From a virus (taxonomy: Duplodnaviria; Heunggongvirae; Uroviricota; Caudoviricetes), in the IMG/VR virus record IMGVR_UViG_2737471839_000017, positions 1-26,854 of that record: a stretch of DNA of 26,854 nucleotides; one strand, given 5' to 3'. Below are positions 1 through 18,474 of the stretch, one piece after another. The first letter of the stretch is position 1. Every line of letters begins with the position of its first letter. Position numbers and translations under genes: made by a program. The notes under the pieces are model-generated. The model saw only the letters and a list, made by a program, of their open reading frames with translations. It ran no database searches and was not told the DNA's origin.

Positions 1-2403
1 ACCAGCAAATGCATCCTTCACCATGTCAGAAAACTCAAGGCGAAGATCAGTATCTTTAGGCATCGGAATACCTTTCGCATCATCAGTACCTTTACGAGCC
101 GCAGCGCCAGCAAGAATTGTCTGCGCAGCGGTTTCAGGTGACACGGAAACATCCGGATTAAACCAGTTTTTTTCTGCCAAAATACCACCAGGTTTATCCA
201 TCAGTATCCCGGCAACGGCAGCAGATGGAGCGTTGGCACTGATCTGCTGTAGTGCTGACATATACACCTGCCCACCACCAGTGCTTTGCCTGATGGTATC
301 GAGATATGCTGCCTGTTGGGAAACGGGCGCATCACGAAAGAAAACACCGATCTGATTGGCCTCGTCTTTGGAAAAGAACGTCAGTGGAGTGCCATATGAC
401 TTGGCAAGGTCACTGACCTGAGCGGCACGCAAGGCAACGCTCTGTCCAAAGTTATCCTTATTGCTCATGTCGATAGGCTTTGCCTGTCCGGCGGCAAGAG
501 AGAACTGCACAGGATCCGATTGCCGCTGCTTTATCACCTGATTTGCAGCCGAAACAACGTTGTCATAAAGAGCTGCGCGTGCCGCATACCCCTCCCCTGT
601 CTCACCAGTATCCGGGCGTAATTGCTCAACATATGCTGTAATGCTGCTTGTCGGCATGTTGCGGAAAGAGCCTATATACTGTCCGGCGATCTGCGTATTT
701 CTGAACTCGGTATATCGCAGGTTTCCTTCTCTGACGCCATAAGCTGCAATAAAATCAGCCTCACCAGGTGGATTAGGAAATTCAACGCCACGCATATACG
801 CAGCCGTCGCATCGCGAACCTGGCTGTCAATCATCGTTTTATATTCAGCCTGCTGCTGCCGACGCAGTTGATCCGCCTGTCGCATAAAACTTGCCTGCGC
901 CTCAGGAGAGGCCGCATCGAATGCTGCATTACCGGTATAGCGTTTGATGTTGGTTGGAATTGTTGATAAACCAAGTGCTGCACTGACACCAGCAGTTAAC
1001 TGCTGATCACTGTATGGCTGGCTACCGTTTTCATGATGGATAATGGCTGCACAAAGCGCCTTCAGGGTATCAGGATTTGATGCATCGAGAGGCTCATCAG
1101 CAGAAACGCCAAGTTGTTCGCACACTGCTTTGATATACGACATAGTGTCATTTTTATCAGTAGGCGGTGCCCAGCGATTAATTATCTCGCTGACTGTATC
1201 AATACCCTGCCGCTGATACGACATCAGGTTCCGCCCTAATGCACGAATCCCGTGTTCAGGTGTTTCGAATTTAGCAAATCGACCATCATCACCGGTCTGG
1301 CCTACCCACGGATTAGTTTTGCTGTATTCGAGATTTCCTGGGTTGTTATTACGGATACCGCGAGCACCACCTTTTACGTAATACTGATCCTGCTGTTCGT
1401 GAAGTTTCTCAGCATAGGCGGTCGCATCCTCAGGGTTATCGAATATTCCAAGGTGTTTTCCAGTTTTTTCATACAGAGCAATAGCTTCGTCATCGGAAAG
1501 CAATTTTCCATCATCACTGACGGTGGGAATGAGAACTTCTCCAGCTTCCGTGCCTATAGAAATTGTTCGAACGGTACTGATAGTCCCATCTTCATTTTTG
1601 ACAGATGGGCGGTTGAAGAGATTAATATTTCCTTGAACAACCATTCCCTTTGTGGACTTTGGCTCTCCACCATAAGGATTAACAATAGCCCGCTTTGATC
1701 CAGCAGCAGTATCGCTTAACTCGCCATTACTTTGGATAAATGAGATCGCATTGTTTGCCGACCACTGGGACAATGCTGCATCAGCAACCTTCTCTTTAAA
1801 CTCGATTTTCTTGGCCTGTATTTGCTCGTCGCTCCAGCCATGTGCAGCACCGTACTCCTCTATTTGCTGGAAAGTTTGCTTATTAGCCAATACGTATGCG
1901 GCATTGTCGCCATACAATGCTGCGGCATTTTTACCATTGTTCAGCAGCGTCGCCTGAAACTGACCTTCTTCGTAGGCATTAATTTGCCCTATCTCGTGCC
2001 GCCCGGCCTGCGTAGTGAACTGAATGCGCTGCTGCTGTGCCTGCTGCATGAAAGCATTACGAGCCTGTTCATCCGGCAGCGACATAGCCAATTGCTCGAC
2101 CTGGGCATCAAACTGCTGCGTATACTCCTGACCTTTTCCAATAGCATTTTTCCCTTTCAGGTTAAGCAAACCTGTTTCAGGGTTATTCAGCAGATCGCTG
2201 CTTATCTGGCTTAAGCTAAGAGAAGCATCCTGAGCCAGAGCGATATTGGTACGCTGTTTTGCCTGCCCCAAAACATCAATTGCCTCTGTCCCTGCCCGAA
2301 CAAAAGCATCACTAATACCTGGCTGAGAAAACGTCTGCAAGCCTGCTGACTGAACTCCACGACTCTCAACCTGACGTCCGGATACTGTTGGTACGACTGG
2401 CAT
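1..2403 (-). CDS. Large virion protein, internal/ejection protein candidate (T7 gp15/gp16-like position); N-terminus in window, C-terminus beyond position 1
   Basis: Minus frame open from ATG at 2403 to position 1 (no complete minus ORF listed there, consistent with an open-ended frame); RBS GGAGG upstream (revcomp of 2408-2413); start overlaps the upstream stop (TAATG). Own translation, unverified. Confidence 0.5.
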
Positions 2404-2948
2404 TATAATCCTCCGGGTAATCTGGTTCCTGCTGCTGCCCCGATTGGCGCAGGGGTGCTTTGAGTAAACGGACTCCACGTCCCACCAAACATCTGGTACG
2501 CACCGTATGCCTTCAGAGGCGCAGTGAGCAATGTTGTTGCTGCTCCCACATTCCCCTGTTTACGGGCTGAACTGGCTTCTGCTTTATAGTTGGCAGCCTG
2601 AACCTGATAACCGTAAGCCTCGCGTTGCGCGTTATTCGCCGTCGTCAGCGAATCAAGAGCGCCAAACTGGGCAGTGTCGCCAAATATATCCAGCGCGTTA
2701 CCGGTAGATAAATCGGCGCCGGTCGCCCCCATTGTCGCCGCCTGTGTACCAAGCCGCTGTCGGGTCTCTCTGCGCCGTTGCTCAGCTTCAGCGTTACCTC
2801 TGTTTATTGCATCATTTGCCTGAGATGTGGCTATATCTGCGTTCGCTTCTGCAACCTTCGATGCATACTTTCCCTGTTGGTACTGGGTGTATGCCTGAAT
2901 GCCACTCATGGCGAGCATTGCGCCACCAGCAATAACCGGATCGCACAT
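2403..2948 (-). CDS. Internal virion protein, T7 gp14-like candidate (181 aa)
   Basis: Starts MC..., Ala/Gly/Gln-rich, size and position after the tail tubular genes resemble T7 gp14 (recalled, not searched); stop-start coupled to neighbours. Confidence 0.45.
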
Positions 2949-3412
2949 TATTTTCTCTCCATGTGAAATCTGTGGAAATTAAGACCAAGAGCACCATAAG
3001 GCGCGGCTTCTTCAAGCCTGAATCCAAGCCAGTGCAGCCATGCTTTGGCAACATGGTTTCGCTCGTCGACGTAGTTTTCCAGGCGTGGATAAACTGCCAG
3101 CATCTGCTGCAATACAGGGCGGCAGTGGCGAAGAAATGTCTTCTGATATTTTTCAATACGGCTGGTTCCTACCAGCCAGGGCGTACCATTGCCACCGATC
3201 ATTGACGCCGGAGATACGCCAAACATGGTTACCAGTTCTCCGTTCGCAAATCCTGACCAGGCCATAGTCGCAGTACGCAGACCAACACGCAGCGCATCTT
3301 CGGTAGTCATCAGTGATACCGCATACAGTTCGTCAATATCAGCCTGACGAACATCCGGCAAAATCATCTGAAGATGCTCTTCGGTAGCGGGAATAATTCG
3401 AACATCGATCAT
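2948..3412 (-). CDS. Virion protein, gp13-like position (154 aa)
   Basis: ORF coupled by ATGA overlap to the 821-aa gene upstream; assignment is by position only. Confidence 0.35.
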   Translation of the reverse strand: MIDVRIIPATEEHLQMILPDVRQADIDELYAVSLMTTEDALRVGLRTATMAWSGFANGELVTMFGVSPASMIGGNGTPWLVGTSRIEKYQKTFLRHCRPVLQQMLAVYPRLENYVDERNHVAKAWLHWLGFRLEEAAPYGALGLNFHRFHMERK

Positions 3413-5877
3413 CAGAATCCCCCAACAGTAAGGCGAGGAATAACGGCAAGAACAGACAGCGGCAACGGGTCAAGCTGACGGATTTTTACACGTCCGTTTT
3501 TGCCCCAGTTACTGTCCAGTTTCACTTCTACTTTTCCGGTAGCGTCATCAACAGGATCATCGTAGAACTCGAATTCACGCTGTGGATATTCGTACCATTT
3601 ACCGCTGGGCGTAGTCGCCCAGATGCCGCGACTGGCATTCACAACCAGAGTAACGGACGGGATCACCTGTTTTTTGTCCAGCAGCGTTTCCTGTCCGTTA
3701 ATGTTGATATCCAGTGTTTCGAATTCGGCAGTTATTGGCAGGCCGATGTGCACTACAGCCCCCGGAGATTCCAGCGTGACGGCACCTCCGGAAACCACTT
3801 TCTGTGGTTCCACGTTCGCATCAGAGAGAATGTTTACGGTCTGGCCTTCAAGATGAGACAGGCCTCCAAATGTCCGGCGCGCCATCTGCCAGTTCGTGGT
3901 GGCCACATTCCTGAGGGATGGCGGGACGTTCCTGTTAGCACGAACCACTACAGCGGTATTGCTGGTTACAGAAATAATGTCGCAACGTAATTCTTTTGAC
4001 ACTTCATCGCCAGTATCAGTTCCGGTATAAGGGAACTGTAGTTGCGCGCCGACATCACTACTGGTGAAGTACGCACCACCAGAAACACTGATTGTATATT
4101 CCGCGCGGTAATCCCATTCGCCAGAACCACCAATGATTGTCATCGTTCTGTCAGACGTATTTCTTCCATCATAGCTAAGGCCAGAATCAACAAAGAAAGC
4201 GTCTTCATCGCTGGTAAATAAACGGCTGGACAGCCGCTCGATGTATCTCACTGTTTGCCCGTTAACGGTTCGGTTAACGACGAAATACACCGCATCTTCA
4301 TTGCCTTCGCTGATACTGCACGTGCTTTCATATTTTCCGGTACTGGACTGTGGTGCCCATGCAAAAACCTGTTGATCACGCAAATAGGTCATCACCAGTA
4401 ATTTACCGTCATCACGAATGCAGAAGGCGCTGGAGTAAGGGACAATCGAGAAGCACCAGTCAACAATGCTGTGCTTCTGAAAAAGATGATTGGCAAGGAT
4501 GGTCAGGTCGTTCCCCTGATAGCCGTCAACATCGAATGAGTAGGCCAGATCACGGACAACGCTGCCTTTCTCCTGGACGAACAAAGCAATATTCGCCACG
4601 GCAATTGGCGGGACGTTGCTTGAGCCATTTGATCCCTGAGAGCTGAATGCAAATGATGATGGGGTTAACACTTTGTTCTGGTCGCCGGTGATGACGTACT
4701 CACCTCCGGAAGTCAGCGCCACCAGAGAACCAACATCAATCAGGTGACGGATCTCATTAACCTGACGCCCGGCATAGGTGTAGATAATTCTGTCGTCATC
4801 CTGCGTAGGATTGCTTTTGCCAAAATCCTTATAATCCCCAGTACGGCTGGCCCAGATAGTCTGAGGGAACGCAGTCGATGCGGCGAAGTAAAGACGTTGT
4901 TGATAATAAACAACAGTGCCAGGATAACCATTAACACTGTTCCAGGCATATTTAGCCCATTTATAGCTGGCATTATCCTCGCCAACGACCTGCGAAGGGA
5001 TATAGGAAATCACCTCGGCAGTTGCAGTAGTTCCATTTGCAGCAGTGATACGGGCAATGCCAAAACCACTGTGCAGATATTCCCACTCAATGCCAGTATC
5101 ATCATCACCGGATCCGCCCCAGCCATCCCATGATGTGCCTTCTGTATGCGAAGGGCGCAAAGTACCTGTTTTGCCTGCTGTAACGGCGCGATAGTAGTTA
5201 CTGTCTGCACGGCGAATATCGCCAATCGACGTACTCTTACTGGTTTCCCATACCGGCACTGAATCCACTGCAGGCTGTTCCAGATAGAACAATTTTCCTA
5301 CCTGCTCCGCGCCAAAAATAGAGGCGCTTGCCGTTAACGTAATTGTCCCGGTGCTGGCGCTGGCATAAACCGTCACTGACTCGTCAATATTGATATCTTC
5401 AAATGGTCCGTTCTTCGTTACCACATCAACCAGTTGCCAGTTGTCATGCGCATAGCGACGCAACTCTTTCGGCGGGTATGCCGGATGAACAAGCGTAAGC
5501 ACGTCTGCGCTTTGCGTGAATTTAATTCGGAACAGATCGGCTTCAGTATATGGCGTGGCAATTTCATAAATAACATTGCTGCTGTTCAGCACCAACGCAC
5601 CATCTTTGATAACGCGCATGTACTGGTGTCCGAACTCCAGAGCATAAGTCTGAACCGTCGAGAACTGGAACGGTATCAGGCGGCATTTCCGATTTGGGTA
5701 TTTGGCGGCACCGACAAAACGCGTACCAGGTCGATTCTCAACGCCGCCATACTGCCGCACGATAAAGTTATCGCACTTGCGCAATGCCACCTGGTACTTC
5801 GCCATGTCGATACGACCGTACAACGACGGTCCAATCTCACCACCGGCAAAGCTGGGCTGGATCCAACTGATAGCCAT
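3412..5877 (-). CDS. Tail tubular protein B-like (821 aa)
   Basis: Size and position directly after a gp11-like gene; ATGA start/stop overlap with the upstream gene; beta-rich Ser/Thr/Gly composition typical of tail proteins. Confidence 0.5.
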   Translation of the reverse strand: MAISWIQPSFAGGEIGPSLYGRIDMAKYQVALRKCDNFIVRQYGGVENRPGTRFVGAAKYPNRKCRLIPFQFSTVQTYALEFGHQYMRVIKDGALVLNSSNVIYEIATPYTEADLFRIKFTQSADVLTLVHPAYPPKELRRYAHDNWQLVDVVTKNGPFEDINIDESVTVYASASTGTITLTASASIFGAEQVGKLFYLEQPAVDSVPVWETSKSTSIGDIRRADSNYYRAVTAGKTGTLRPSHTEGTSWDGWGGSGDDDTGIEWEYLHSGFGIARITAANGTTATAEVISYIPSQVVGEDNASYKWAKYAWNSVNGYPGTVVYYQQRLYFAASTAFPQTIWASRTGDYKDFGKSNPTQDDDRIIYTYAGRQVNEIRHLIDVGSLVALTSGGEYVITGDQNKVLTPSSFAFSSQGSNGSSNVPPIAVANIALFVQEKGSVVRDLAYSFDVDGYQGNDLTILANHLFQKHSIVDWCFSIVPYSSAFCIRDDGKLLVMTYLRDQQVFAWAPQSSTGKYESTCSISEGNEDAVYFVVNRTVNGQTVRYIERLSSRLFTSDEDAFFVDSGLSYDGRNTSDRTMTIIGGSGEWDYRAEYTISVSGGAYFTSSDVGAQLQFPYTGTDTGDEVSKELRCDIISVTSNTAVVVRANRNVPPSLRNVATTNWQMARRTFGGLSHLEGQTVNILSDANVEPQKVVSGGAVTLESPGAVVHIGLPITAEFETLDININGQETLLDKKQVIPSVTLVVNASRGIWATTPSGKWYEYPQREFEFYDDPVDDATGKVEVKLDSNWGKNGRVKIRQLDPLPLSVLAVIPRLTVGGF

Positions 5878-6482
5878 CAGGACAACCTCGCAATGGTAAA
5901 CTCGTCAACCGGTGGCTGTGGTTCCTGTGATTCATTCTGGCTATGCGAACCAGCACTAAGAATCACGCGATTGTACATATTGAGAGCAAATGTACCGAGA
6001 TCCGCATTCCCAGTCAGCGCCATGTTAATGGCTGCCGCAAGACGCCAGGCCAGCGCCTCCATAAAAATGGCATCAAACATGTTCACATCTGAAACGCGAG
6101 AGACATACTTGAGCCATGCCTGCGGCTGGTCTGTATAGATCAATTTTCCTGTTCCGTTGGTGTCTGCACCAACTTCGTACTGAACGCGCATTGCTGCTGT
6201 TGGATTGCGTACACCAGGAAGCATAATTTCAGTAATGCGCAGACAATCGGACGGGTACTGGTACGCATATTCCCAGTCAGGCGGTGGATTGTTCGTATCT
6301 GCAAGCGCCACGCGTTTGGTAGCAAAGTTCCAGTCAAAATCAGAAAGCACAGCATCACGGCAGGCCTCAAAGTGCAGCGAACATTCCCCCGCTTCCTTGC
6401 TGGCTTCCGTCAGGCTGTTAATGCTGCGGCTATTGCCAATATTGGACAGCGCACGATTGCAGATCTCTACTACAGAGGCCAT
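5877..6482 (-). CDS. Tail tubular protein A-like (201 aa)
   Basis: Length close to T7 gp11 (196 aa) and N-terminal 'CNRALSNIGNSRSINSLTE' resembles gp11 'DILASIGEPPVSTLE' from memory; not searched. Confidence 0.5.
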   Translation of the reverse strand: MASVVEICNRALSNIGNSRSINSLTEASKEAGECSLHFEACRDAVLSDFDWNFATKRVALADTNNPPPDWEYAYQYPSDCLRITEIMLPGVRNPTAAMRVQYEVGADTNGTGKLIYTDQPQAWLKYVSRVSDVNMFDAIFMEALAWRLAAAINMALTGNADLGTFALNMYNRVILSAGSHSQNESQEPQPPVDEFTIARLS

Positions 6483-6805
6483 TACTCACCCCCATTGCCG
6501 TACAGAGTTTCAGCCGCTGATTTTTCTACATCCCCGGAAACAGGAGCGATCGCCATATCAGTGATCTGCAGATCGGCGCTGCGATTAACACCATCGTCAG
6601 TTTCTCTGGCAGACAGGCCTCGAATAACAGCCTTTGCAGTTATCATCACTTCTGTTCCAACGCCCTGAGGTTGCGCCTTCAGCTTATTCAATGTGTCGTT
6701 ATTCAGCGTGATGCACAGCCCCCACGGGTATTCATCGCGAGTTCTGGTTTCTCCGCTCTCATCCTGGTAGCTGTCAGTGCCGGTTTTGAGGTTTACGAGT
6801 TCCAT
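6482..6805 (-). CDS. Hypothetical virion-module protein (~107 aa; likely start ATG at 6805 rather than GTG at 6811)
   Basis: ORF with RBS AGGAG 7 nt upstream of the ATG at 6805. Confidence 0.4.
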   Translation of the reverse strand: MELVNLKTGTDSYQDESGETRTRDEYPWGLCITLNNDTLNKLKAQPQGVGTEVMITAKAVIRGLSARETDDGVNRSADLQITDMAIAPVSGDVEKSAAETLYGNGGE

Positions 6806-6812
6806 ATACACT

Positions 6813-6840
6813 CCTGCAATAAAGGGGCCGAAGCCCCTTG
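6813..6840 (-). terminator. Intra-operon intrinsic terminator/attenuator candidate
   Basis: On the minus strand GGGGC-ttcg-GCCCC hairpin followed by TTTATT, between the 6856 and 6805 genes. Confidence 0.35.
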
Positions 6841-6855
6841 TCTGATCCGCGAGGC

Positions 6856-7191
6856 TTACACGCCCAGTTCTTTACGCTTATCTGCGATCTTCTCGCGGAG
6901 CGTTTCGGCTTTGGCGTTATGGTGTGGCTTCTCGTTAAAGAGCAATTCGTACTCTTCACGGAGCTTATCCAGTTCACCATCATCTGACACATCGTTGATG
7001 ATTTTGGTGCTGGTTGCTGCCATTGACACCTTTCCTGCAACTTTTGCTTTTTCCTGTCTGGCTGCATCGTTAACAGGTTCCAGTGCGCTACCAGGCTCAC
7101 CTTCGTATTCGATTTCTGCCCCCTCAGGCCACAGTGTGTTATGGATATGAGAGAGGCGCAGAACGCGGTATCTTGGTTTCTCACCTGACAT
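6856..7191 (-). CDS. Hypothetical virion-module protein (~111 aa; start ATG at 7191 preferred over GTG at 7200)
   Basis: ORF; RBS AAGGTGA 7 nt upstream of the ATG at 7191. Confidence 0.4.
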   Translation of the reverse strand: MSGEKPRYRVLRLSHIHNTLWPEGAEIEYEGEPGSALEPVNDAARQEKAKVAGKVSMAATSTKIINDVSDDGELDKLREEYELLFNEKPHHNAKAETLREKIADKRKELGV

Positions 7192-7201
7192 CGATATCAC
7201 C

Positions 7202-7639
7202 TTAACCAGTTACTTTTGAGCGGATCGGATACGGCGTATTGGCATCAACATCAAGACTGATACCAGCAGTGAATTCGCCAGCCGTTAGTGGGCCAGTTGC
7301 GACGGAGTAGTTAACACGCAGATATCGCTGAACACCGGCAGGCACCTTTGCAGAAACAACTCGTTTACCTGCTGTCAGGGCGGTCTTTGCCAGTGCGCCA
7401 CTATCATAAATAGTGGTCCATGAGCTGTTATTCTCACTCGTCTGCAACTGGATGTTTACAGTTGCATCACCGCTTGCCGCGGCGGCTGTGTTAACCAGCG
7501 CCCAAAACTCAAGCGGGTAACCCACGCCGATATCACGACGTTTTCCGTCAATTGGACCGAGATCGATTACGTCAGTAGAAGCCGCGGTATTCGTAACCGC
7601 CTGAGCTTCGGAGAACATCAACAGTTTGTCGGTGATCAT
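7202..7639 (-). CDS. Putative minor capsid/decoration protein (145 aa)
   Basis: Immediately downstream of the major capsid gene; RBS GGAGAAAG; Thr/Ala/Ser-rich beta-type composition. Confidence 0.4.
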   Translation of the reverse strand: MITDKLLMFSEAQAVTNTAASTDVIDLGPIDGKRRDIGVGYPLEFWALVNTAAAASGDATVNIQLQTSENNSSWTTIYDSGALAKTALTAGKRVVSAKVPAGVQRYLRVNYSVATGPLTAGEFTAGISLDVDANTPYPIRSKVTG

Positions 7640-7690
7640 CTTCTTTCTCCATTAGTGGGTCTGTTACGACCCACAGGTTAATAACAGGCG

Positions 7691-8683
7691 TTACACCACG
7701 CGGGCTTCTGTTTCCAGAAGCGCATCAGTTTCACGAATTGGTACACCACGGAATGAAGTCCACCACTCGCCTTCAGTCTCTTTTACGCTGATAGCCAGAG
7801 ATGTTTTCTCCAGAGACTGTAGATCAAGAGCCTGGCCTACAGTGCGGTTCATGTAGAACACCGGGCGGCCCATGCCACGGTTTGGAATGCGATGCAGTGC
7901 TTTAACCATCAACTTCGCAATATTTGCGGCAGAGGAAGGTTCTGAAAGATTGCTGACATCGATGTTTGCAATGCGAACAACATAACGCCAGTCACGCAGA
8001 GCAAGTCCGTTGTCCCATTTGTAATGGGTACGGTAGCCTTCGTACTTGCCGCCATTCGCATCTTCCAGTGTCACCTGGCCTTTATCTTCCATCTGGATGC
8101 CAGCCTTCTGCCCTTTCGGGAAGATGCCATGCACGGTGTTTTCGCCCCACACCACTAACCAGATTGAGGTGTTATCTGTACCCGTGCCACCAGCATCAAT
8201 GATGTTCTGAGCATTACCCGCAGACAGGCTGGAATAGCGGGAGGACAGTCCCATAAACTGCTGAGGGTTAACGCTGGAATCACCATAAAACAGCGTCTGC
8301 GCCATCTGCTGATTCATCGCTTCAATAAATGCGCGGTCTTCAGACAGGCGGAATTCGGCGGTATTGCCGTTCAGATCAGCCAGTGACTTATCGACTTCAG
8401 CATAGGTTTCCAGCATGCCAACGGAATCGGTTACCTGCACTGTGGTTGATTTGCTTGGCTGTACGCCATAGTTCAGCAAACGCCAGGTAGCTGAAGGTAA
8501 ACCAGAACGAATGGTGGTTCGGTGTCCGGTAGGAAGGTTCCCTTCGACAAAAGGCATATCCTGAAGGATCGGGTTAGTTTGACCGAGAAGCTCGATAATC
8601 TTATCGACTTTCCCGTTTGGATCGACGCGCTTACCCCAGTCAGCCAGCGTTAGCGCAGTTAAGCCTTTAACAGCCATTGTCAT
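7691..8683 (-). CDS. Major capsid protein (330 aa)
   Basis: Position after the scaffold gene, size, RBS GAGAGG; family not determined. Confidence 0.65.
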   Translation of the reverse strand: MTMAVKGLTALTLADWGKRVDPNGKVDKIIELLGQTNPILQDMPFVEGNLPTGHRTTIRSGLPSATWRLLNYGVQPSKSTTVQVTDSVGMLETYAEVDKSLADLNGNTAEFRLSEDRAFIEAMNQQMAQTLFYGDSSVNPQQFMGLSSRYSSLSAGNAQNIIDAGGTGTDNTSIWLVVWGENTVHGIFPKGQKAGIQMEDKGQVTLEDANGGKYEGYRTHYKWDNGLALRDWRYVVRIANIDVSNLSEPSSAANIAKLMVKALHRIPNRGMGRPVFYMNRTVGQALDLQSLEKTSLAISVKETEGEWWTSFRGVPIRETDALLETEARVV

Positions 8684-8691
8684 TTCCTCTC

Positions 8692-9387
8692 TTATTTGCC
8701 ATAGAGCACTTCGGCCGCACTACGCTGGCCTTCATTACCACCGGTGACCATGCCATCTTCAGACATCGCCTTTCCGATTTTCACGAACGTTTTGACCAGA
8801 TCAGGGTGATTACCCAGCCCGGTGGTGTTCAGATATTCTTTGAGTTCAGGTGTCCCGAACTGGTCAAGCGCACGCTGTGCGGCGCTAAGGTTAGAAATCA
8901 ACTTGTCGCCACCGATTTCTTTGTCAGCTTTTACATCAGCAGCCCACTGCTCGGTTGTTTTCTGCCAGGCTTCTGCCTGGCGCTGCTGCACACCTGCCAG
9001 AATCTTCGGATAAGCATCAACCAGCTTTTGCGCTTGCTCGTTGGTCAGGTTAAGTTCTCGCGCCACCGGCTCGAACTCCTTCAACGCTTCTGTATCCAGC
9101 TCTACGCCTTCGGCAGCCTGAAACTCGTACTTCTCAGGCGCACCCTGTGGTTTATCGCCGTCCTTTTTTTCATCCTGCTTATCGTTTTCAGGCTTTTTGT
9201 CATCAGCAGGTTTATCGCCATCAGCAACAGGTTGTGGCTTATCACCTTCCTGTTGTGATGGATCACCAACTGGAGCAGGGTTATCACCTGCAGGCGCTGA
9301 CGGTTCTGACGCAGCCGGAGCTGCTCCACCATCGACTGGTTGCTCATTGCAAAGACGGCGATACAGCAAACGCTCAAATAAATTCAT
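8692..9387 (-). CDS. Scaffolding protein (start ATG 9387; GTG 9393 alternative)
   Basis: Acidic low-complexity Pro/Asp/Lys-rich N-terminal half and helical C-terminal half, between portal and capsid genes; RBS AGGAG. Confidence 0.55.
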   Translation of the reverse strand: MNLFERLLYRRLCNEQPVDGGAAPAASEPSAPAGDNPAPVGDPSQQEGDKPQPVADGDKPADDKKPENDKQDEKKDGDKPQGAPEKYEFQAAEGVELDTEALKEFEPVARELNLTNEQAQKLVDAYPKILAGVQQRQAEAWQKTTEQWAADVKADKEIGGDKLISNLSAAQRALDQFGTPELKEYLNTTGLGNHPDLVKTFVKIGKAMSEDGMVTGGNEGQRSAAEVLYGK

Positions 9388-9389
9388 GA

Positions 9390-9686
9390 TCACTCCTGTT
9401 CACTGGCCTCTTTGGCCATCTTCAAATACTGTTCAGGGCAATGCGCCATAACGCGCTGAAACAGTTCCAGCGCCAGATTGCGTTGCCCCTCATTAAATGC
9501 CATTGCCATAGCGTCCATCGGTGAGATAGCGGAAAACACCCGGCCTTTCTCCAGCACAGACCAGACAACGCGACGCCCCTGTTCACTGCTCATGACAAAG
9601 CGAATGTCATCAATTTCACGCTGTGCCATGTCACGTTGCTTACGGGCGTTTTCTTCTTTCAGTTGATCATCTTCGTAATCTGTCAT
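9390..9686 (-). CDS. Hypothetical protein (98 aa) between portal and scaffold
   Basis: ATGA coupling to the portal stop; charged helical sequence. Confidence 0.45.
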   Translation of the reverse strand: MTDYEDDQLKEENARKQRDMAQREIDDIRFVMSSEQGRRVVWSVLEKGRVFSAISPMDAMAMAFNEGQRNLALELFQRVMAHCPEQYLKMAKEASEQE

Positions 9687-11362
9687 TGTGATTGCCCACC
9701 CTGACCACTAACTGCATTCGCCATAGCTGACAAAACACTCGGATCCGAAGTTTTAGCTTCGCTTAGCGTCTTGGCACCCTGTGCCGCCGCCATCCCCATC
9801 GCCATCATTTGTTGCTGCTGTTGTTGCTGTGCCCGTTGCTGGCGAGCCTGCTCAACCTGTTCCTGCGGAACAATGACGGTTGGAGACACTCCGGACATAT
9901 CAGCGAATGCATCGATCGCCTGATCAACGTTGAGTTTGTCGAGAGCTTCTGGTTTCGCTTGCGCAAGTTGACCAATGAAGTTAACCGTGGACGCCAGACT
10001 GGACAGGCCGATAGACTTCTGCGCCTGAGCCATGACAGAAATGTATTCGACCTTCAGGGGCATACCTTCCATCGCGTCAGGCGGTGGCGGCAGCATGTTT
10101 TTACGCACCATCATCGAGAAAGCGCGGTCAATGAGAGGATTAAGACATTCGTCGTTCAGACGCTCCAGAACCGGCCCCAACATCAGAAGTTTTTCTTCTT
10201 TCATTTCGATCACTGCTTCAACAGGCATCGAGCGGGTATTGATGTTCTGCAACATCATGAACAGATCGACAAAGTAGGCGCTGTTAATGATTTGGCGAGT
10301 GTCCTGAATGTCTGCTACCAGATCTGCTGTACTGGGGTTAACCAGATAAGCAGGCCTGAAACCATCCTGACCAGTAATCTGATCGATATACGTGATGTCG
10401 CCAGGAAGAAGGGATGCGCGCTGATTCTTGAGGGAAGTCGGAGCAACCATCGGCGGATTGGTGGCTTTATCAATCAACTGTGACTTACGCTTCTGGAGAA
10501 GCTGCAATGCCTTAACAGGTCCAAGCGCCAGCATACCCGGGCATGATGATCCATAAACATCTTCGCCGTTAACTTCCCAGCGCGGAGCCATAATTGGAAA
10601 CTCATCGAATCCGGACTCACGCAACAACTTGTCGTTATCGCCGCCAACCTCGTAATAAACCGATTTGAATGGCTTGTTCTTGCTATCCAACTTCGATGTA
10701 TCGCGGTCAATGTTCGGGTAAACCGAATGCATCACTTCAATCCACTTCTCGTAGGTGCCTCTTTCCCACATGCTTTTTACGGATTCGCTGACGTTATTTA
10801 GCCCGAACTCCTGAACAAGCTGACGAACAGTCATAGAGAACTTGCGAAAACAGGTGTCAACACTGCCACGAGGTGAGTTAGCCAGGTAGTAACTGCCTAT
10901 CGGGAATGGCATTGTGCGAATGATGTCCTCATCATCCTCTAGTACCGCCATTGCACCGGTGCTGTATGTGCCGAGGCTTCCGTATAACTGCGGCAGCGAC
11001 TGATAGAGATTCGACTTATTGAACATATCGTTCATGCGGTTCTGCACCGCCTCAAGCCACAACTTAACAGGGCCATAATCCATCATTTCAGGATCTGGCG
11101 TAGCCAGGCGAAACCACGGACGGGCGGGGCTTGTGATGCCAGACATCATGCCGCTGGCGAGAGTGCGCGCCGCCATAGTCCCGGTCGAATCAATAATGCG
11201 TGTATTGCGTCGATCGTTACGGTTGACCTCAGAAGTCAGAAAGCGGGAACCACGCGGGTTGATGTAATCACTCAACTCGCGCCAGTGCGGTTCGAACGAC
11301 TGACGCTCGCTTTCAAGTTGTGCGAACTGTTTGTTCAATCGCTCTTTAGTTGTTTCCGCCAT
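9683..11362 (-). CDS. Portal / head-to-tail connector protein (559 aa)
   Basis: Size; C-terminal Gln/Ala/Met-rich tail (QQQQQQQMMAMGMAAAQGA) resembling the T7 gp8 C-terminus from memory; RBS GGAG; sits between terminase and scaffold. Confidence 0.75.
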   Translation of the reverse strand: MAETTKERLNKQFAQLESERQSFEPHWRELSDYINPRGSRFLTSEVNRNDRRNTRIIDSTGTMAARTLASGMMSGITSPARPWFRLATPDPEMMDYGPVKLWLEAVQNRMNDMFNKSNLYQSLPQLYGSLGTYSTGAMAVLEDDEDIIRTMPFPIGSYYLANSPRGSVDTCFRKFSMTVRQLVQEFGLNNVSESVKSMWERGTYEKWIEVMHSVYPNIDRDTSKLDSKNKPFKSVYYEVGGDNDKLLRESGFDEFPIMAPRWEVNGEDVYGSSCPGMLALGPVKALQLLQKRKSQLIDKATNPPMVAPTSLKNQRASLLPGDITYIDQITGQDGFRPAYLVNPSTADLVADIQDTRQIINSAYFVDLFMMLQNINTRSMPVEAVIEMKEEKLLMLGPVLERLNDECLNPLIDRAFSMMVRKNMLPPPPDAMEGMPLKVEYISVMAQAQKSIGLSSLASTVNFIGQLAQAKPEALDKLNVDQAIDAFADMSGVSPTVIVPQEQVEQARQQRAQQQQQQQMMAMGMAAAQGAKTLSEAKTSDPSVLSAMANAVSGQGGQSQ

Positions 11363-11376
11363 TTCAATGACTCCGG

Positions 11377-11583
11377 TTACTGACCAAGCAGCGTTTTACC
11401 GCTGGTATTAGCGGTTGATGTGTCGCCCTGAGAACCGGTAAGCAGCGTAGAACTACGACCAGCAGCAGCGCGACGGCGACGTGTTTCTTCGTCGCGGGCA
11501 TCAACAACGGCGGCATCCTGCTCCTGTGGTGCTGCCTGAACTTCTGGTGTTGCAGGCACTGATGGTGAGCTACCCATGCACAT
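11377..11583 (-). CDS. Small acidic Ala-rich protein (68 aa), first gene of the head operon
   Basis: ORF with GGAG RBS; the overlapping 11364-11603 frame is judged less likely. Confidence 0.3.
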   Translation of the reverse strand: MCMGSSPSVPATPEVQAAPQEQDAAVVDARDEETRRRRAAAGRSSTLLTGSQGDTSTANTSGKTLLGQ

Positions 11584-11651
11584 ATCAATGACTCCGTACG
11601 CAATTAAATTATTACCAATTTAACCACATATGATTTATTTATCGTAGATAG

Positions 11652-11688
11652 TTGACATTTAACGCACGAATTATTACCTTTCAGGTAA
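11652..11688 (+). promoter_or_regulatory. Candidate promoter (TTGACA at 11652-11657) with overlapping operator palindrome TTACCTTTCAGGTAA (11674-11688)
   Basis: Perfect -35 hexamer; weak -10 (TACCTT); operator-family site lies over the -10/+1 region. Confidence 0.3.
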
Positions 11689-12010
11689 CTAAAGAGTTCA
11701 TTCCGGTTACTAACCTGACTGGCTTGTCGTTAAATTGAACAGGTGGAGTGAGCTTTTATTTTGAGCAGTACGGCGTATGGCACATGCGCCGATAGCGGTC
11801 TGGATACGTTTAAGGGGCACCCTCCCTTGCTCGGGCAAACGAACCAGGTAGCCGGAATGTGCAAGTCGAGCGGTTTTATTCCGCGCACGGGGATTCACCA
11901 TCCCGGCGATTCGGTGTGACGCCTCGGAAGAGACGAGGGTGCAACGATGAGAGCATTTATGGAGCCGCGACAAAGTGTGGCGCCTTAACAGGCTAAGTGC
12001 TCTCAGCGTT

Positions 12011-12087
12011 GTGGCATTAGCTCAGTTGGACAGAGCAACCGCCTTCTAAGCGGTTGGTCGCAGGTTCGAATCCTGCATGCCACGCCA
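12011..12087 (+). tRNA. tRNA-Arg (anticodon UCU), 77 nt including CCA
   Basis: Hand-folded cloverleaf: acceptor GTGGCAT/ATGCCAC, D stem GCTC/GAGC, anticodon stem ACCGC/GCGGT with loop CTTCTAA, T stem GCAGG/CCTGC with TTCGAAT loop, CCA end. Confidence 0.85.
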
Positions 12088-12130
12088 GAATCACGCCTAA
12101 GGACCGTGATGCCAGAAGTTCCAGGGGCTT

Positions 12131-12173
12131 GGCGGTGATGGTTTCCCTTGAAGGACTATCACCGCCCTTTTTA
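12131..12173 (+). terminator. Intrinsic terminator downstream of the tRNA
   Basis: 9-bp stem GGCGGTGAT / ATCACCGCC with an 18-nt loop, followed by CTTTTT. Confidence 0.55.
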
Positions 12174-12250
12174 CAGCAGGACGCCATTGCGATGGCTTCA
12201 TGCTGTAAACCAGTACAGCCACGGAAGGCATAACTCATTGCTTCCAGTTC

Positions 12251-12274
12251 GCCCGGTTCGCCGGGCATTTTTTT
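12251..12274 (+). terminator. Second intrinsic terminator/attenuator immediately upstream of the 12286 ORF
   Basis: GCCCGG-ttcg-CCGGGC hairpin followed by ATTTTTTT; the T-run abuts the RBS AAGGTGAG. Confidence 0.5.
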
Positions 12275-12285
12275 AAGGTGAGATT

Positions 12286-12657
12286 ATGAACGACAAGCAA
12301 ATCGAAAAAGAAATCGTTGAGAAAGGCAAAACGGCACCGCGCGTTACGCCAGACCATATCGAAGGCATTATTGCTCAGGAGGCATATTTCACAGCAGAAG
12401 ATGGTGCCTTTGGCAAAGCCATAAAAGCGAAACATACTGGCGGAGAGGTAAACTACCAGCCGCACGAATCACTTTCTCTGCTGACGTTCTGCGTCCTGGT
12501 GCTGCGCAACGGCTTCACCGTCACCGGAGAGAGCGCCTGTGCAAGCCCGGAAAACTTTGATGCAGAAATTGGTCGGAAGATTGCCCGGCAGAATGCTGTA
12601 AACAAAATCTGGATGCTCGAAGGTTACTTGCTGAAGCAGAAGCTAAGCGAGCAATAA
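12286..12657 (+). CDS. Hypothetical moron protein (123 aa)
   Basis: Strong RBS AAGGTGAG 4 nt before the ATG; followed by a terminator; opposite strand to the flanking late genes. Confidence 0.6.
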   Translation: MNDKQIEKEIVEKGKTAPRVTPDHIEGIIAQEAYFTAEDGAFGKAIKAKHTGGEVNYQPHESLSLLTFCVLVLRNGFTVTGESACASPENFDAEIGRKIARQNAVNKIWMLEGYLLKQKLSEQ

Positions 12658-12677
12658 CACCGTGACATGTCACAAAC

Positions 12678-12704
12678 AGCCAGCCGATGAGCTGGCTTTG
12701 TTTT
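12678..12704. terminator. Bidirectional intrinsic terminator between the moron ORF and the terminase large subunit
   Basis: 7-bp stem AGCCAGC / GCTGGCT flanked by AAACAAA on one side and TTTGTTTT on the other. Confidence 0.5.
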
Positions 12705-12747
12705 ATCCTCACCAGAGGATATCTCCGTCATTATCCCCGCTAACGGA

Positions 12748-14223
12748 TTAAGCATAGGGATCGTAATCTGTAATGGCCTTGCCTTGCTGGTTCTGCTGCC
12801 CAGGAATTCGCAGACGCTTCGACACAGGGAAAGCAAACGTCAGCAGTAGCGCATCGCCTTTACCCGGCGAACGCCCAAGACGCTCTTTGATATCTTCCTT
12901 CGGTTCGATAACGATTTTACCGTCCACACGAACTTTGTACTCTGCCGCCGACAGGTCGTCTGCAGTTTCCTGGTCATCCAGCATGCCGCCCAGCCTCAGC
13001 CATGTCTTACATGAGTTGAACATCTCCCCACGCTTGTTAAGCATCTGCGGGTCAGTGGACGCACCGCCGAACGGAACAAGTTGCCATGTACGTCCCCAGC
13101 CATCACCGATTGACTTCAGCCCGGTTCCGTAACCGAAGTCGATGAATACTGCGTCAGCCTGGTACTGGTCTTCAAAGTCAGCGATACGCTTCGCCATAAT
13201 CAGATCGTCGGTGGTCTTGTTACCAGTCCACAGCACCTTACTGTGCAGCCCCTGCCGCAGGTATATCACCGCGTCATCAACGCCTGAATATGCCGGGTCA
13301 ACACCGATTATCACCGGAGCATGCGCCACCTGCGCAGCGGTCACCACCCGTTTCATTGCCTCATCAGTAAGACCGGTAGGGATAAACTGCAATTCAGATG
13401 CATCAGGGAATATGCCGCGCACACGGATTTTAACGAAGTCGCTGTCTTCCCCGTAGTCATCAACCCATTTCTGCAACTGCTGTTTGTTAGTGCCTTCCAC
13501 CGTCCGGCTGTCAATCTGCGCAGTTTTCCAGCGGTGTTTATATTTGCGGAAACATTCGCGAAAACGCCCGGTGTTACGTGTAGGGTTTCCGAACGCCACC
13601 CAGATAATCTCAGTGTCTTCGTCCGTAAGCGCACCCTCAGCAACTTCCCACACCAGATCCGCAATGTTCGACGCTTCATCGAATACCACGATGATGCGTT
13701 TGCGCTCGTTGTGTAGTCCGGCGAATGCCTCAGTGTTGTGCTCAGACCAGGGTATTGCGTCAGCCCGCCACCGCTTGTCGTGCCCAGGGTCATTGCTGTA
13801 CATCGCGGTAGCGGTACAGGTAAACCAGTCTTTCGTGATAGCAAGGTTCGACCACTTGATAATTTCCGGCCAGGTCTTCGTTCGTAGCTGGTTGTCGGTG
13901 TTGGCGGTCACCACGACCTTACAATCCTCGCAAGTGGACATGCCCCAGTTGATCAGCATTGAGATGAATGCGGATTTACCAATACCGTGACCAGAAGCGC
14001 GTGCCAGCATAAGCGGCTGATAGCGCGTCTCTGGATTCTGCAGGTGATCACGTATCTCTCGGAACGCATCAGCCTGCCACTGACGTGGACCGGTGGCATG
14101 TGCCAGTTCAGTCCCCTCTTCCCCCCACGGGAACGCATAGAGGGCATAGCCAAGCGGATCGTGAGTGAACCCTGCAATATCCTCGATCAACTGCTCTTCA
14201 GGAGATAACGCTGTATCTGTCAC
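12748..14223 (-). CDS. Terminase large subunit (491 aa)
   Basis: Walker A-like ARASGHGIGKS; C-terminal nuclease-type acidic motifs (VIIGVDPAYSG, FIDFGYG); GTG start overlapping the small-subunit stop (GTGA). Confidence 0.85.
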   Translation of the reverse strand: MTDTALSPEEQLIEDIAGFTHDPLGYALYAFPWGEEGTELAHATGPRQWQADAFREIRDHLQNPETRYQPLMLARASGHGIGKSAFISMLINWGMSTCEDCKVVVTANTDNQLRTKTWPEIIKWSNLAITKDWFTCTATAMYSNDPGHDKRWRADAIPWSEHNTEAFAGLHNERKRIIVVFDEASNIADLVWEVAEGALTDEDTEIIWVAFGNPTRNTGRFRECFRKYKHRWKTAQIDSRTVEGTNKQQLQKWVDDYGEDSDFVKIRVRGIFPDASELQFIPTGLTDEAMKRVVTAAQVAHAPVIIGVDPAYSGVDDAVIYLRQGLHSKVLWTGNKTTDDLIMAKRIADFEDQYQADAVFIDFGYGTGLKSIGDGWGRTWQLVPFGGASTDPQMLNKRGEMFNSCKTWLRLGGMLDDQETADDLSAAEYKVRVDGKIVIEPKEDIKERLGRSPGKGDALLLTFAFPVSKRLRIPGQQNQQGKAITDYDPYA

Positions 14224-14816
14224 TGATTACCATCCTGACGTTCTTTGAGTCGCTTCCTGGCTGCTGCTATGCGATCAGCAATTGTCACATTCACATTAAC
14301 ATCCAGACGTTCTTTGAACGCGTTGACATCAACATGCTTACCAATCAGCTCAAGGTTCTTCACCTTGTCAGGCCATTTAATTTTTTTGAGGATTGTCTCT
14401 ATCGAATCCTCGTTCATGTTCATGATGGTCGACGACAGATCAAAGCCACTAAGCGTAGTGCGCCAGATTTTCGGCCACTCGCGGATTGGCTTAAGGCTCC
14501 CATCGTCGTTGAGGATATCAATCACGTCCATCTGGTCGATCTCCACCAGGCGCATGAGAACGTAATCAGCACTGACGCGCATTCGTTTGTTGCGCTCCTC
14601 CATCAACTCGGCAATCCGTTTTTGAATGCGTTCATCGCGCATCATGACACTGGCTTTAACTGCCGCTGTATTTGGGGAAAATCCTGCGTTAATCGCTGCC
14701 TGAGTCTGGTTTTCAGGCGTTTTGATGTATGACTGGCAATAAGCCTCCTGCATTGCTGTTAGTGGCTTAAATTGCGTTGATTTGCGTTTATAGGTTTTAG
14801 GTTCAGCAGGCATCAT
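14220..14816 (-). CDS. Terminase small subunit (start probably ATG 14816 or 14813; listed ORF extends to 14894 through a terminator hairpin)
   Basis: Immediately upstream of and coupled to the large subunit; N-terminal region 'AMQEAYCQSYIKTPENQTQAAINAGFSPNTAAVKASVMM' matches the small-terminase pattern from memory. Confidence 0.65.
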   Translation of the reverse strand: MMPAEPKTYKRKSTQFKPLTAMQEAYCQSYIKTPENQTQAAINAGFSPNTAAVKASVMMRDERIQKRIAELMEERNKRMRVSADYVLMRLVEIDQMDVIDILNDDGSLKPIREWPKIWRTTLSGFDLSSTIMNMNEDSIETILKKIKWPDKVKNLELIGKHVDVNAFKERLDVNVNVTIADRIAAARKRLKERQDGNQ

Positions 14817-14856
14817 AACCACCGTGGTAATAGTTACCGTTGTGGTAATAGTACCA

Positions 14857-14885
14857 TGCAAAATAAAGCCGCCATAGTTGGCGGC
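14857..14885 (-). terminator. Intrinsic terminator upstream of the terminase genes (tR'-like candidate)
   Basis: On the minus strand GCCGCC-aactat-GGCGGC followed by TTTATTTTG. Confidence 0.5.
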
Positions 14886-14934
14886 AGTATTCAAAACCCA
14901 TCAAATTCATCATGCATAATCTACTCGTGACATG

Positions 14935-15273
14935 TCACACTATTAATTTCGTTTCATGCCAGCCTTTAGTCACCCAGCATTGCGAGTCACCATTACACGG
15001 GCATGAATTAACTGGAACTCTCTCGCCGCACTTACCGCAACGTTTTCCACTGATCGATTTTATACGCCCGTGCACGCGTGCATCATCCTGGCGGATCAGT
15101 AACGCAATATACTCACCAAATTCGTAAGGCGCACGCCCTGGGCGACGCGTGGCACAGTTACGCTCCAGCATTTCAATTTCCTGAGCATCAAGCACAATCT
15201 CCAGCTTACGCACACCAGATGCAGCTTGTCTGGCTCTCTGAGCGGCTTTGCGTTCTGCTGCGGATTTAGCCAT
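14935..15273 (-). CDS. Cys-rich small protein, late-gene regulator (Q-like antiterminator) candidate; start ATG 15273 with RBS GGAGAGAAGG (alternative 15288)
   Basis: C-terminal CGKCG...CPC cluster suggests a zinc-binding domain; last gene before a terminator and the terminase genes. Function is inferred from position. Confidence 0.4.
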   Translation of the reverse strand: MAKSAAERKAAQRARQAASGVRKLEIVLDAQEIEMLERNCATRRPGRAPYEFGEYIALLIRQDDARVHGRIKSISGKRCGKCGERVPVNSCPCNGDSQCWVTKGWHETKLIV

Positions 15274-16059: not shown

Positions 16060-16060
16060 A

Positions 16061-17951: not shown

Positions 17952-18012
17952 CTTTACCCTCGCTTATCCACATAACTTATTGATTACATTGATAACTAAA
18001 AAGATCGTCGAT

Positions 18013-18357: not shown

Positions 18358-18374
18358 GATTTACCCTTGAGGTA

Positions 18375-18403: not shown

Positions 18404-18474
18404 TAGAGTTTAGAATGTTTTGTTACCCAACAGGTAACTATCGAGGCGTAAAAAAATGCGCTATCGCGCTGGTA

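Follow-up and report, generated by a model that had tools for sequence, protein, structure and literature searches.

Escherichia phage phiV10, Enterobacter phage Tyrion and Salmonella phage epsilon15, the type member of the phiV10/epsilon15 group, have curated RefSeq annotations with a common gene order, and their records assign the genus Uetakevirus. The close relative ZX5, which is temperate and short-tailed, has guaA as its integration site (PMC9782041), and phiV10-type phages serve as O157:H7 reporter phages (PMC11854483). For two further phages, Legionella LME-1 (9EFK) and Carin-1 of Cobetia marina (8CJZ, 8CK0 and 8CK1), portal, adaptor and nozzle have been described as structurally resembling those of T7 without sequence similarity (PMC12407071). 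The DNA analysed here, in the following called the window, is a stretch of 26,854 nucleotides that corresponds to positions 1 to 26,854 of the IMG/VR virus record IMGVR_UViG_2737471839_000017. We are highly confident that it comprises roughly two thirds of the genome of a temperate Escherichia coli phage with a short tail, a member of the genus Uetakevirus (phiV10/epsilon15 group). The element combines a T7-type tail with a head of the epsilon15/BPP-1 type and a different packaging enzyme, and does not belong to the T7 family of phages.

Affiliation with the phiV10/epsilon15 group

Megablast comparison of positions 1-14934 with phiV10 gave 97.5% identity over 97% of the length. Positions 1-15000 are 97-98% identical, at 95-98% coverage, to phiV10, the O157 typing phages 9 and 10, PAS61, ZX5 and phiv142-3, and match Tyrion and Salmonella epsilon15-like phages at lower identity. 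According to a segment map against the whole phiV10 genome the window is collinear with phiV10 apart from a swapped accessory cassette (15277-17793), and the part to its right (17794-26854) is 96-98% identical; the early region shows the same 96-98% identity to phiV10, TL-2011b and ZX5, save this one cassette. Altogether ~89% of the window aligns to phiV10 at ~97.3% identity. The gene order of phiV10, epsilon15 and Tyrion is found in the window gene by gene, including the early region with repressor, initiator, RecE/RecT, methylase and int. A preliminary description of this DNA had recognised a podovirus-type virion module and had named epsilon15-like phages as genomes to be compared; the nearest relatives, phiV10, ZX5 and epsilon15, are indeed short-tailed, and the correspondence to epsilon15 extends from gene to gene. 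The same description regarded the stretch as a modular hybrid. This holds in so far as a lambdoid early layout is joined to a podovirus virion, but the phage type is already known and its architecture is standard for a described genus, not a new hybrid.

For a genus, the International Committee on Taxonomy of Viruses (ICTV) asks for a nucleotide identity of more than ~70% over most of the genome to recognised members, and the window, which is the part of the genome compared here, lies above this value. The species criterion is an identity of at least 95% over the full genome length; coverage multiplied by identity to phiV10 is roughly 87% over the window and thus below this limit, a third of the genome lying outside the window. 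At least 80% of the window is present in 70 of 5426 complete E. coli genomes, and similar fragments are scattered in 2863 of them.

Window and phiV10, together with the other E. coli relatives, share the order int, early genes, terminase, ejection proteins as well as integrase, repressor, P and RecT. They differ in the 2.5-kb accessory cassette, which is replaced, in ~294 nt that are additionally present in the large ejection-protein gene of the window, in a small helix-turn-helix (HTH) gene at 22097-22303 (differing segment ~22105-22299) and in the recombination genes, present as separate RecE-like and RecT genes in the window and annotated as one fusion in phiV10. With epsilon15, for which cryo-electron microscopy structures (3J40 and others) are available, the window has in common the genome plan gene by gene, the distribution of an operator motif and the three positions of a palindrome, GTGACATGTCAC. 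Nucleotide identity to epsilon15 is only ~75-80% and patchy, the epsilon15 annotation contains no lambda-P homologue, and its accessory genes are others.

On the right the window stops precisely where the integrase start codon begins, and it does not contain the attP core ATTGAGTGGGAATGATT, whose sequence has been reported for phiV10 and ZX5 (PMC9782041). It may represent either a prophage or a phage whose record is circularly permuted. In phiV10, tailspike, O-acetyltransferase, holin, endolysin and spanins are located after the last virion genes, between gp21 and int, a region that corresponds to sequence beyond the left end of the window. Tail fibre and lysis genes had been placed outside the stretch before, in agreement with this map, and lytic activity within the window is confined to a hydrolase domain of the large ejection protein. 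The ends of the phiV10 record, which correspond to 14934/14935, were considered as physical genome ends; as they fall on a stop codon, they probably result from an arbitrary linearisation.

A T7-type tail on a head of another type

All virion genes are located on the minus strand and form a contiguous late module (1-14894); in the six-frame list of open reading frames (ORFs) the series is unbroken from ~15288 to the left end. The genes follow each other in the order regulator, small terminase subunit (terS), large terminase subunit (terL), 68-aa protein, portal, Bbp19-like protein, protease, capsid, Bbp16-like protein, 111-aa protein, gp10-like protein, 201-aa protein, 821-aa protein, 154-aa protein, 181-aa protein and large ejection protein (Table 1). 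The extent of the module is as previously described, with three amendments: everything lies on the minus strand, the leftmost 2403 nt are not empty and code for the ejection protein, and terS likely starts at 14816. From the portal to the ejection proteins the genes follow the order of T7 genes 8-16, and the terminase genes precede the portal, as had been noted before.

Pairwise comparison of all 15 virion proteins of the window with 14 virion proteins of T7 (gp7-gp19) by phmmer and BLASTP yielded nothing significant. A relationship to T7 can therefore only be remote, and profiles and folds are needed to detect it. Two proteins could be connected to T7 through curated families. The portal shares PF12236 with T7 gp8 (expectation value, E, of 7e-188 and 3e-113, respectively), and its C-terminal tail is rich in Gln, Ala and Met, as had been remarked earlier, these residues making up 53% of the last 60 positions in comparison to 17% of the remainder. 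The 181-aa protein, previously likened to gp14, scores above the threshold of PF24072 T7_gp14 (30.6 bits, cutoff 27; E 4e-7; alignment to positions 1-172 of the 187 in the model), a family to which T7 gp14 belongs as well; both proteins begin with 'MC'.

The 201-aa and 821-aa proteins had been compared to the T7 tail tubular proteins A and B because of their size. In a PDB sequence search the 201-aa protein matched the 'connector' of Carin-1 (8ck1_E, E 2.9e-26) and also the adaptor of LME-1; Carin-1 was identified as such through the Foldseek description and through papers citing it. An AlphaFold2 model of the 201-aa protein, with a predicted local distance difference test score (pLDDT) of 85.9, was used for Foldseek and retrieved Carin-1 (E 2e-16, template modelling score, TM, 0.83), LME-1 (E 4.6e-9), cyanophage P-SCSP1u, T7 gp11 (7BOX, E 6.9e-6, TM 0.59) and the tail tubular protein A (TTPA) of KP32 (E 2.9e-5). 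At the level of sequence the relationship is hardly visible: the protein does not match Pfam PF17212 (gp11), hhalign of its family against the single T7 gp11 sequence gave nothing, and hhalign against a profile of nine Autographiviridae gp11 sequences was weakly positive (52.8%, E 1.4e-4). The RefSeq record of epsilon15 already lists an HHpred match of its gp11 to T7 tail tubular protein A. Judged from the predicted model, the 201-aa adaptor is a gp11 homologue at the fold level that stands outside the curated sequence family.

The 821-aa protein is ~50% identical over its full length to the 'Tail Nozzle' of Carin-1 (8ck1_A, E 2.5e-219) and also matches the nozzle of LME-1 (9efk_M, E 1.5e-15). 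It has no match to Pfam PF25675 (gp12), and comparison of its family profile with the single T7 gp12 sequence was weak (25%, E 7.7e-4). Against a gp12 family profile that we built by hand from nine Autographiviridae sequences, however, hhalign gave 98.3% at E 1.5e-14 over 502 columns beginning with residue 1. By profile comparison the nozzle is thus homologous to T7 gp12, again outside the curated family. The adaptor and nozzle are a pair of true remote homologues of T7 gp11 and gp12 and do not merely resemble them in size. Note that the family from which this diverse profile was drawn is very large and counts 18,318 clusters at 50% identity (E<=1e-3) or 9,167 at E<=1e-30, that many members have N-terminal regions 100-300 residues longer, and that no Pfam or NCBIfam model detects the window member.

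The remaining parts of the virion belong elsewhere. No window protein matched the T7-type families of capsid (PF21703), scaffold (PF05396), gp13 (PF11090), small terminase (PF11123) or large terminase (PF22530), and T7 gp19, the large terminase of T7, falls in families other than those of the window terL. The 154-aa protein, which occupies the position of T7 gp13, has no significant similarity to it and no match in Pfam or NCBIfam. The same two databases gave no match for terL, protease, adaptor, nozzle and the 800-aa protein, and PDB sequence searches with terL and the 181-aa protein found nothing. The capsid matched BPP-1 (3j4u, E 9.5e-129), Carin-1 (8cjz, E 1.2e-87) and epsilon15 gp7 (3j40, E 2e-85) in the PDB; it is markedly nearer to that of the Bordetella phage BPP-1 than to epsilon15 gp7, although the genome is epsilon15-like overall. 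No RNA polymerase family was found among the Pfam matches of the scanned proteins, and none is annotated in the complete genomes of phiV10 or epsilon15. As 93% of the window has been assigned and the unassigned ORFs are not longer than ~330 aa, there is no room for such a gene, in line with the preliminary description.

On these comparisons the relationship to T7 is limited to portal, tail and ejection proteins. The earlier assignment to a T7-supergroup virion stands for these components and fails for capsid, protease, terS and terL, which come from other families. Compared to T7 and the Autographiviridae, the window has the same series of portal, (scaffold/protease), capsid, adaptor, nozzle, small internal and large ejection proteins with a wall-hydrolase domain, but its terminase genes come first instead of last, it has no phage RNA polymerase, and it is temperate with integrase and repressor. 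The closest solved portal, capsid, nozzle and adaptor are those of Carin-1 and LME-1, which provide a structural template where portal and adaptor are dodecamers and the nozzle is a hexamer; their hosts and genomes differ, and tail fibres or spikes and ejection proteins are not comparable here. Portal, adaptor, nozzle and gp14 of the epsilon15 type are thus ancient relatives of their T7 counterparts and the genes for capsid, maturation and packaging are not, which is relevant for the evolution of podophages at the level of modules.

The solved homologues of Carin-1, LME-1, epsilon15, BPP-1 and T7 allow us to propose how the virion may be assembled. The small and large terminase, which are not of the T7 type, would pack the DNA through a dodecameric portal of the T7 gp8 family into a capsid of the epsilon15/BPP-1 type that is presumably matured by the protease, with the gp10-like and Bbp16-like proteins as reinforcement. 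Twelve copies of the 201-aa adaptor would form a ring on the portal and carry a hexamer of the 821-aa nozzle, and both together would constitute the short tail. We assume that the 154-aa and 181-aa proteins and the very large proteins downstream are stored in the head and ejected to form a channel across the cell envelope, one of them bringing along a cell-wall hydrolase domain.

That domain is recognisable in the 800-aa part of the large ejection protein encoded in the window. In addition to phrog_992 (E 3e-280), endolysin and transglycosylase PHROGs are matched, and a peptidoglycan-hydrolase-like domain extends over residues 347-480 (nt ~964-1365), with PDB matches to Gp29 (9vvp_L, E 5e-38) and to an endolysin (7q47, E 4e-17). 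For the homologue the epsilon15 record reports an HHpred match to lytic transglycosylase. The ~294 nt (~100 codons) in excess of phiV10 are located at nt 1368-1698, just before the hydrolase domain, in a segment without detectable Pfam domain that PAS61 shares at 99% identity and SPN1S-type Salmonella phages at 79%. Since these phages keep the segment, it is phiV10 that appears to have suffered a deletion.

Other origins of the module were considered as well. A new and recent chimera, formed by grafting a virion module of the T7 group (Autographiviridae) on a lambdoid temperate backbone, would agree with a portal and a gp14 in T7's Pfam families, with the T7-like order from portal to ejection proteins and with lambda P and RecT in the early region. 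It is nevertheless very improbable: none of the window proteins shows significant pairwise similarity to T7 virion proteins, capsid, protease/scaffold, terS and terL belong to families other than T7's, and the arrangement matches gene for gene phages that were described from 2003-2009 onward and are present in many genomes. With the arrangement known and pairwise similarity absent, any link to T7 must be ancient and is not specific to this element. A P22-like podophage (Lederbergvirus) would likewise be temperate and terminase-first with a lambdoid early region, and the general layout of terS, terL, portal, scaffold/protease and coat, the HHpred match to Sf6 gp2 that the epsilon15 record annotates for the terL homologue, and the Ead/Ea22 and Sf6 gene 66-like genes fit this picture. 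We consider it next to inconceivable for the present element, since its portal is of PF12236 (T7 gp8 family) and not of the P22 portal family, its capsid is of PF20911 GP7, its tail is of the gp11/gp12 type without matches to a P22-type tail hub or needle in Pfam or PHROGs, and its nucleotide matches are to Uetakevirus. Hardly any weight can be given to a virion module of the siphovirus or myovirus type either. The 800-aa protein does match one 'tape measure' PHROG (phrog_2276, E 2.5e-33), but the match covers only the hydrolase-containing segment, which is common to many virion-associated lysins; families of tail tube, sheath, terminator and baseplate are missing, the structural matches are exclusively to podophage tails, and the relatives are short-tailed (PMC9782041). 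Finally, the window might derive from a decayed prophage remnant that can no longer be induced, as its partial view, ending at the int start codon without the attP core, and the similar fragments in 2863 of 5426 E. coli genomes might suggest. This is unlikely, because the genes in the window are all intact and each corresponds to a gene of viable phages at 96-98% identity, RecE and RecT are coupled in the normal way, and attP is expected just outside the window by comparison with phiV10.

We therefore retain the interpretation as a Uetakevirus genome with a T7-type tail on an epsilon15/BPP-1-type head, although several points tell against it or restrict its reach. No database record matches the whole window exactly, and the best complete E. 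coli genome reaches 91% coverage at 97.4%; the element thus represents a known phage type in a distinct mosaic form. The genes for tailspike, lysis and O-antigen modification, attP and the ends of the element lie outside the window. The fold of the nozzle is backed by sequence and profile comparison only, as its AlphaFold2 model, which was built from a shallow alignment of sequences at least 82% identical, had a pLDDT of 39.9 and was not used for a fold search. The oligomeric states and the mechanism of ejection were carried over from homologues and are to be understood as proposals by analogy, and the direct repression of late genes suggested below draws on motif positions and on an unreferenced feature annotation of epsilon15.

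Control of the late genes

Seven exact copies of the inverted repeat TTACC-N5-GGTAA are present in the window, compared to 0.01 expected, and all of them are intergenic. One is found before terS (14834-14848), one before the genes for the 68-aa protein and the portal (11674-11688), two after P and three at the immunity region. The epsilon15 record annotates repressor binding before terS, before gp3, after the initiator gene and three times at the immunity region, and the site at 14834-14848 corresponds to the epsilon15 protein_bind 'repressor' site 12-27. As the operator-like sites lie directly before both late blocks and at the positions known from epsilon15, the prophage repressor probably silences the late genes directly, unlike the situation in lambda.

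The leader of terS (14934-14816) contains a -35-like hexamer, a GC-rich hairpin with a T-run, the operator-like site and then ATGATG. The longest ORF begins with TTG at 14894, a start that is also used in the phiV10 record, and the ATG at 14816 gives a protein of 198 aa. Epsilon15 terS comprises 597 nt, and 198 aa is also the length in Tyrion. Translation from the TTG would run through the hairpin, which is kept in Salmonella phage PAT1 with changes confined to loop and tail, and the shorter length matches that of epsilon15 and Tyrion; the real start is therefore probably the ATG at 14816. By the same comparison phiV10 terS is probably annotated with 26 codons too many in the reference record.

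Upstream of terS, the last gene before the late operon codes for a putative transcriptional regulator. Its ORF has 117 codons, and the protein probably has 112 residues with a start at 15273. The family is represented in 146 phage records; no relative was found in Pfam, NCBIfam or the PDB. The end of the regulator gene carries one of the copies of GTGACATGTCAC, a perfect 12-nt palindrome of the form GTGAC-NN-GTCAC for which ~0.002 exact copies are expected per 40 kb. All Uetakevirus genomes examined have it at the stop codon of this gene. In the complete genomes of phiV10, epsilon15 and Tyrion it occurs at the end of the regulator gene upstream of terS, after terL, and after the last structural gene beside a terminator (positions 39612, 2142 and 19517 in epsilon15, 2702 and 20377 in Tyrion), the copy upstream of terS being interrupted where the record starts and ends in phiV10 and presumably in Tyrion. 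The same palindrome or a variant with one or two changed bases is located at the 3' end of the regulator gene in PAT1, EC.W1-9, BUCT554, a Klebsiella phage and Citrobacter phage Omnitron, and also in the unrelated phages ZF40, Chlobot, N15 and 48ST307 (position 1461 in ZF40, 1546 in Chlobot and 667 in one further record, in the sequences used). N15-like phages carry the variant GTGACTGGTCAC, which in N15 is found at 39269, 28550 and 33237. In Vibrio phage K254 the palindrome lies 226 nt downstream of the regulator gene; in one Yersinia and one Aeromonas case it was not found within 400 nt of the regulator homologue. GTGACATGTCAC is not annotated in the records, and we did not find the motif in the literature searched.

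The palindrome is probably the binding site of the regulator. A CRP site would have another spacing, a pac or cos site is at variance with three copies and with the location of N15 cos elsewhere, and an RNA hairpin would need an impossible 2-nt loop. That regulator and palindrome form a mobile cassette of a regulator plus its cognate site is a tentative suggestion, which we regard as possible but rather doubtful. If it were true, the cassette would indicate in Uetakevirus where the late operon begins, as well as two operon ends flanked by terminators, and an undescribed switch of late transcription, by activation or anti-termination, would act alongside direct repression in place of the Q system of lambda. 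This is the only lead of the present analysis with some novelty, and knowledge of a late-gene switch could be of applied interest in view of the use of phiV10-type phages as O157:H7 reporters.

In BUCT554 and in Klebsiella phage phi3.2 (640-1050 in both) a UmuD-like gene is inserted between the regulator gene with its palindrome and terS, preceded by a LexA-box-like CTGT-N8-ACAG; Chlobot and N15 likewise have UmuD-like genes.

Early region and remaining features

The immunity region (20523-21492) contains a cro-like gene and a repressor with two HTH domains that diverge around the operator-like site at 20838-20852. The replication genes belong to the rightward operon with the order initiator, P, DUF1064, variable cassette and small regulator. 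Of the lambda-like genes O, P and RecT/Red-beta proposed in the preliminary description, P (PF06992) and RecT (PF03837) could be verified; in place of O the window has an initiator with HTH_36 and DnaT domains, and the exonuclease is RecE-like. The initiator is best matched by phrog_1032 (E 3.5e-114), 'O-like' PHROGs matching only weakly in the N-terminal part (E 1e-17 or weaker) and NF002770 DnaT remaining below the cutoff; according to its domains it plays an O-like role without being a member of the lambda O family. No family of N or Q antiterminators was found among the Pfam, PHROG and NCBIfam matches of any early ORF.

Table 1. Positions of genes and other elements in the window (an empty strand cell stands for elements listed without strand).
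Feature	Position	Strand	Evidence or remark
Large internal virion/ejection protein, first 800 aa (phiV10 gp18/epsilon15 gp15 homologue)	1..2403	-	translation open throughout; runs off left end
181-aa internal virion protein, T7 gp14 family	2403..2948	-	PF24072, phrog_418
154-aa internal virion protein (epsilon15 gp13 homologue), at T7 gp13 position	2948..3412	-	phrog_308 'internal virion protein' E 2e-62
821-aa tail nozzle	3412..5877	-	Carin-1 8ck1_A; profile match to T7 gp12 family
201-aa tail adaptor, T7 gp11 fold	5877..6482	-	Carin-1 8ck1_E; Foldseek
Capsid decoration/staple protein, epsilon15 gp10-like	6482..6811	-	PF21628 Gp10-like E 1.2e-51
111-aa protein (phiV10 gp12/epsilon15 gp9 homologue)	6856..7191	-	phrog_590 E 1e-60; synteny with phiV10p12
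Bbp16-like capsid cement protein	7202..7639	-	PF21190 Bbp16 E 4.7e-47
Major capsid protein, epsilon15 gp7/BPP-1 type	7691..8683	-	PF20911 GP7 E 2e-149
233-aa putative prohead protease/scaffold	8692..9393	-	phrog_458 'protease' E 2.6e-111; annotated protease in phiV10, epsilon15, Tyrion
98-aa Bbp19-like protein	9390..9686	-	PF25181 E 2.8e-17
Portal (T7 gp8 family)	9683..11362	-	PF12236 E 7e-188, full-length; PDB 8ck0_A E 7e-179
68-aa protein (epsilon15 gp3 homologue), opens second late block	11377..11583	-	phrog_831 E 2.4e-36
tRNA-Arg (anticodon TCT)	12011..12087	+	ARAGORN; Rfam RF00005, 73.3 bits
123-aa N4 gp49/Sf6 gene 66 family protein	12286..12657	+	PF13876 E 8.9e-35
Palindrome GTGACATGTCAC, copy 2, downstream of terL	12662..12673		syntenic copy kept in phiV10, epsilon15, Tyrion
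Terminase large subunit, not T7-type	12748..14223	-	phrog_2 E 1e-52, phrog_5902
Terminase small subunit	14220..14894, probable real start 14816	-	PF03592 E 1.4e-29
GC-rich terminator-like hairpin and T-run in terS leader	14868..14885	-	terminator scan
Palindrome GTGACATGTCAC, copy 1	14927..14938		overlaps regulator stop codon and -35-like hexamer
Putative transcriptional regulator (phiV10 gp55/epsilon15 gp49/N15 gp46 family), last gene before late operon	14935..15288	-	phrog_536 E 4e-54
Accessory ('nin-like') cassette	15277..17793	-	mostly non-homologous to phiV10; PF04447, PF13935
TTACC-N5-GGTAA inverted repeats, 15 nt each	11674, 14834, 18361, 18423, 20838, 21550, 21612		motif search
Lambda P family helicase loader	18475..19275	-	PF06992 E 2.2e-56; phrog_109
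Replication initiator, N-terminal HTH_36 and C-terminal DnaT DNA-binding domain	19257..20156	-	PF13730 + PF17948
cro-like gene	20523..20753	-	phrog_35
Two-HTH repressor	20908..21492	+	PF01381; phrog_8
RecE-like PD-(D/E)XK exonuclease	22300..23121	+	PF12684; phrog_412 'exonuclease VIII'
RecT	probable ATG 23118, end 24059	+	PF03837 E 2e-44; phrog_561
P4-type tyrosine integrase	25604..26854	-	PF13356 + PF22022 + PF00589; length/position as phiV10p31

With lambda the early region shares the divergent repressor and cro-like genes, the succession of initiator, P loader, 'nin-like' cassette, regulator and late genes, and a leftward operon with recombination genes. It differs from lambda in the HTH_36 and DnaT domains of the initiator, the RecE-like exonuclease, the lack of detected N and Q, the two-HTH repressor, the operator-like sites before the late genes and a P4-type integrase in opposite orientation. 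The exonuclease is not of the lambda Exo family, and the recombination pair has the RecET form; AlpA-like and PerC-like genes and an MT-A70 methylase belong to the operon on the recT side as well. RecE-like and RecT genes overlap by ATGA in the window as they do in Tyrion and epsilon15. The annotated RecE-RecT 'fusion' of phiV10 (gp37, ~18660) has one more A in a homopolymer A-run (junction at ~23095-23121 in the window) and could reflect either a mistake in sequencing the reference or a genuine frameshift variant. Together with the start of terS and the unannotated conserved palindrome, the fusion is one of the annotation issues in the reference records.

The accessory cassette encodes a dATP/dGTP pyrophosphohydrolase (PF04447), an Ead/Ea22-like protein and two unknown proteins. 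Patches of it are 94-97% identical to Stx-converting phages, the P1-like SJ46, IME10 and others, and by these matches the cassette is a typical mosaic exchange.

Between terL and the block of 68-aa protein and portal an island of ~1.1 kb (11584-12747) is transcribed opposite to the late genes. It carries the tRNA-Arg gene, the PF13876 gene and two terminator-like hairpins, and the terminator scan placed a terminator at 12678-12697, after the PF13876 gene. A minus-strand ORF at 12017-12268 (phrog_4647, phiV10p04) overlaps the tRNA-Arg gene in antisense, and one of the two may not be real. In the late module, an ORF of 136 aa at 6774-7184 was dismissed as a wrong-frame artefact because of its composition and the absence of matches; the real gene in this place is the one for the 111-aa protein.

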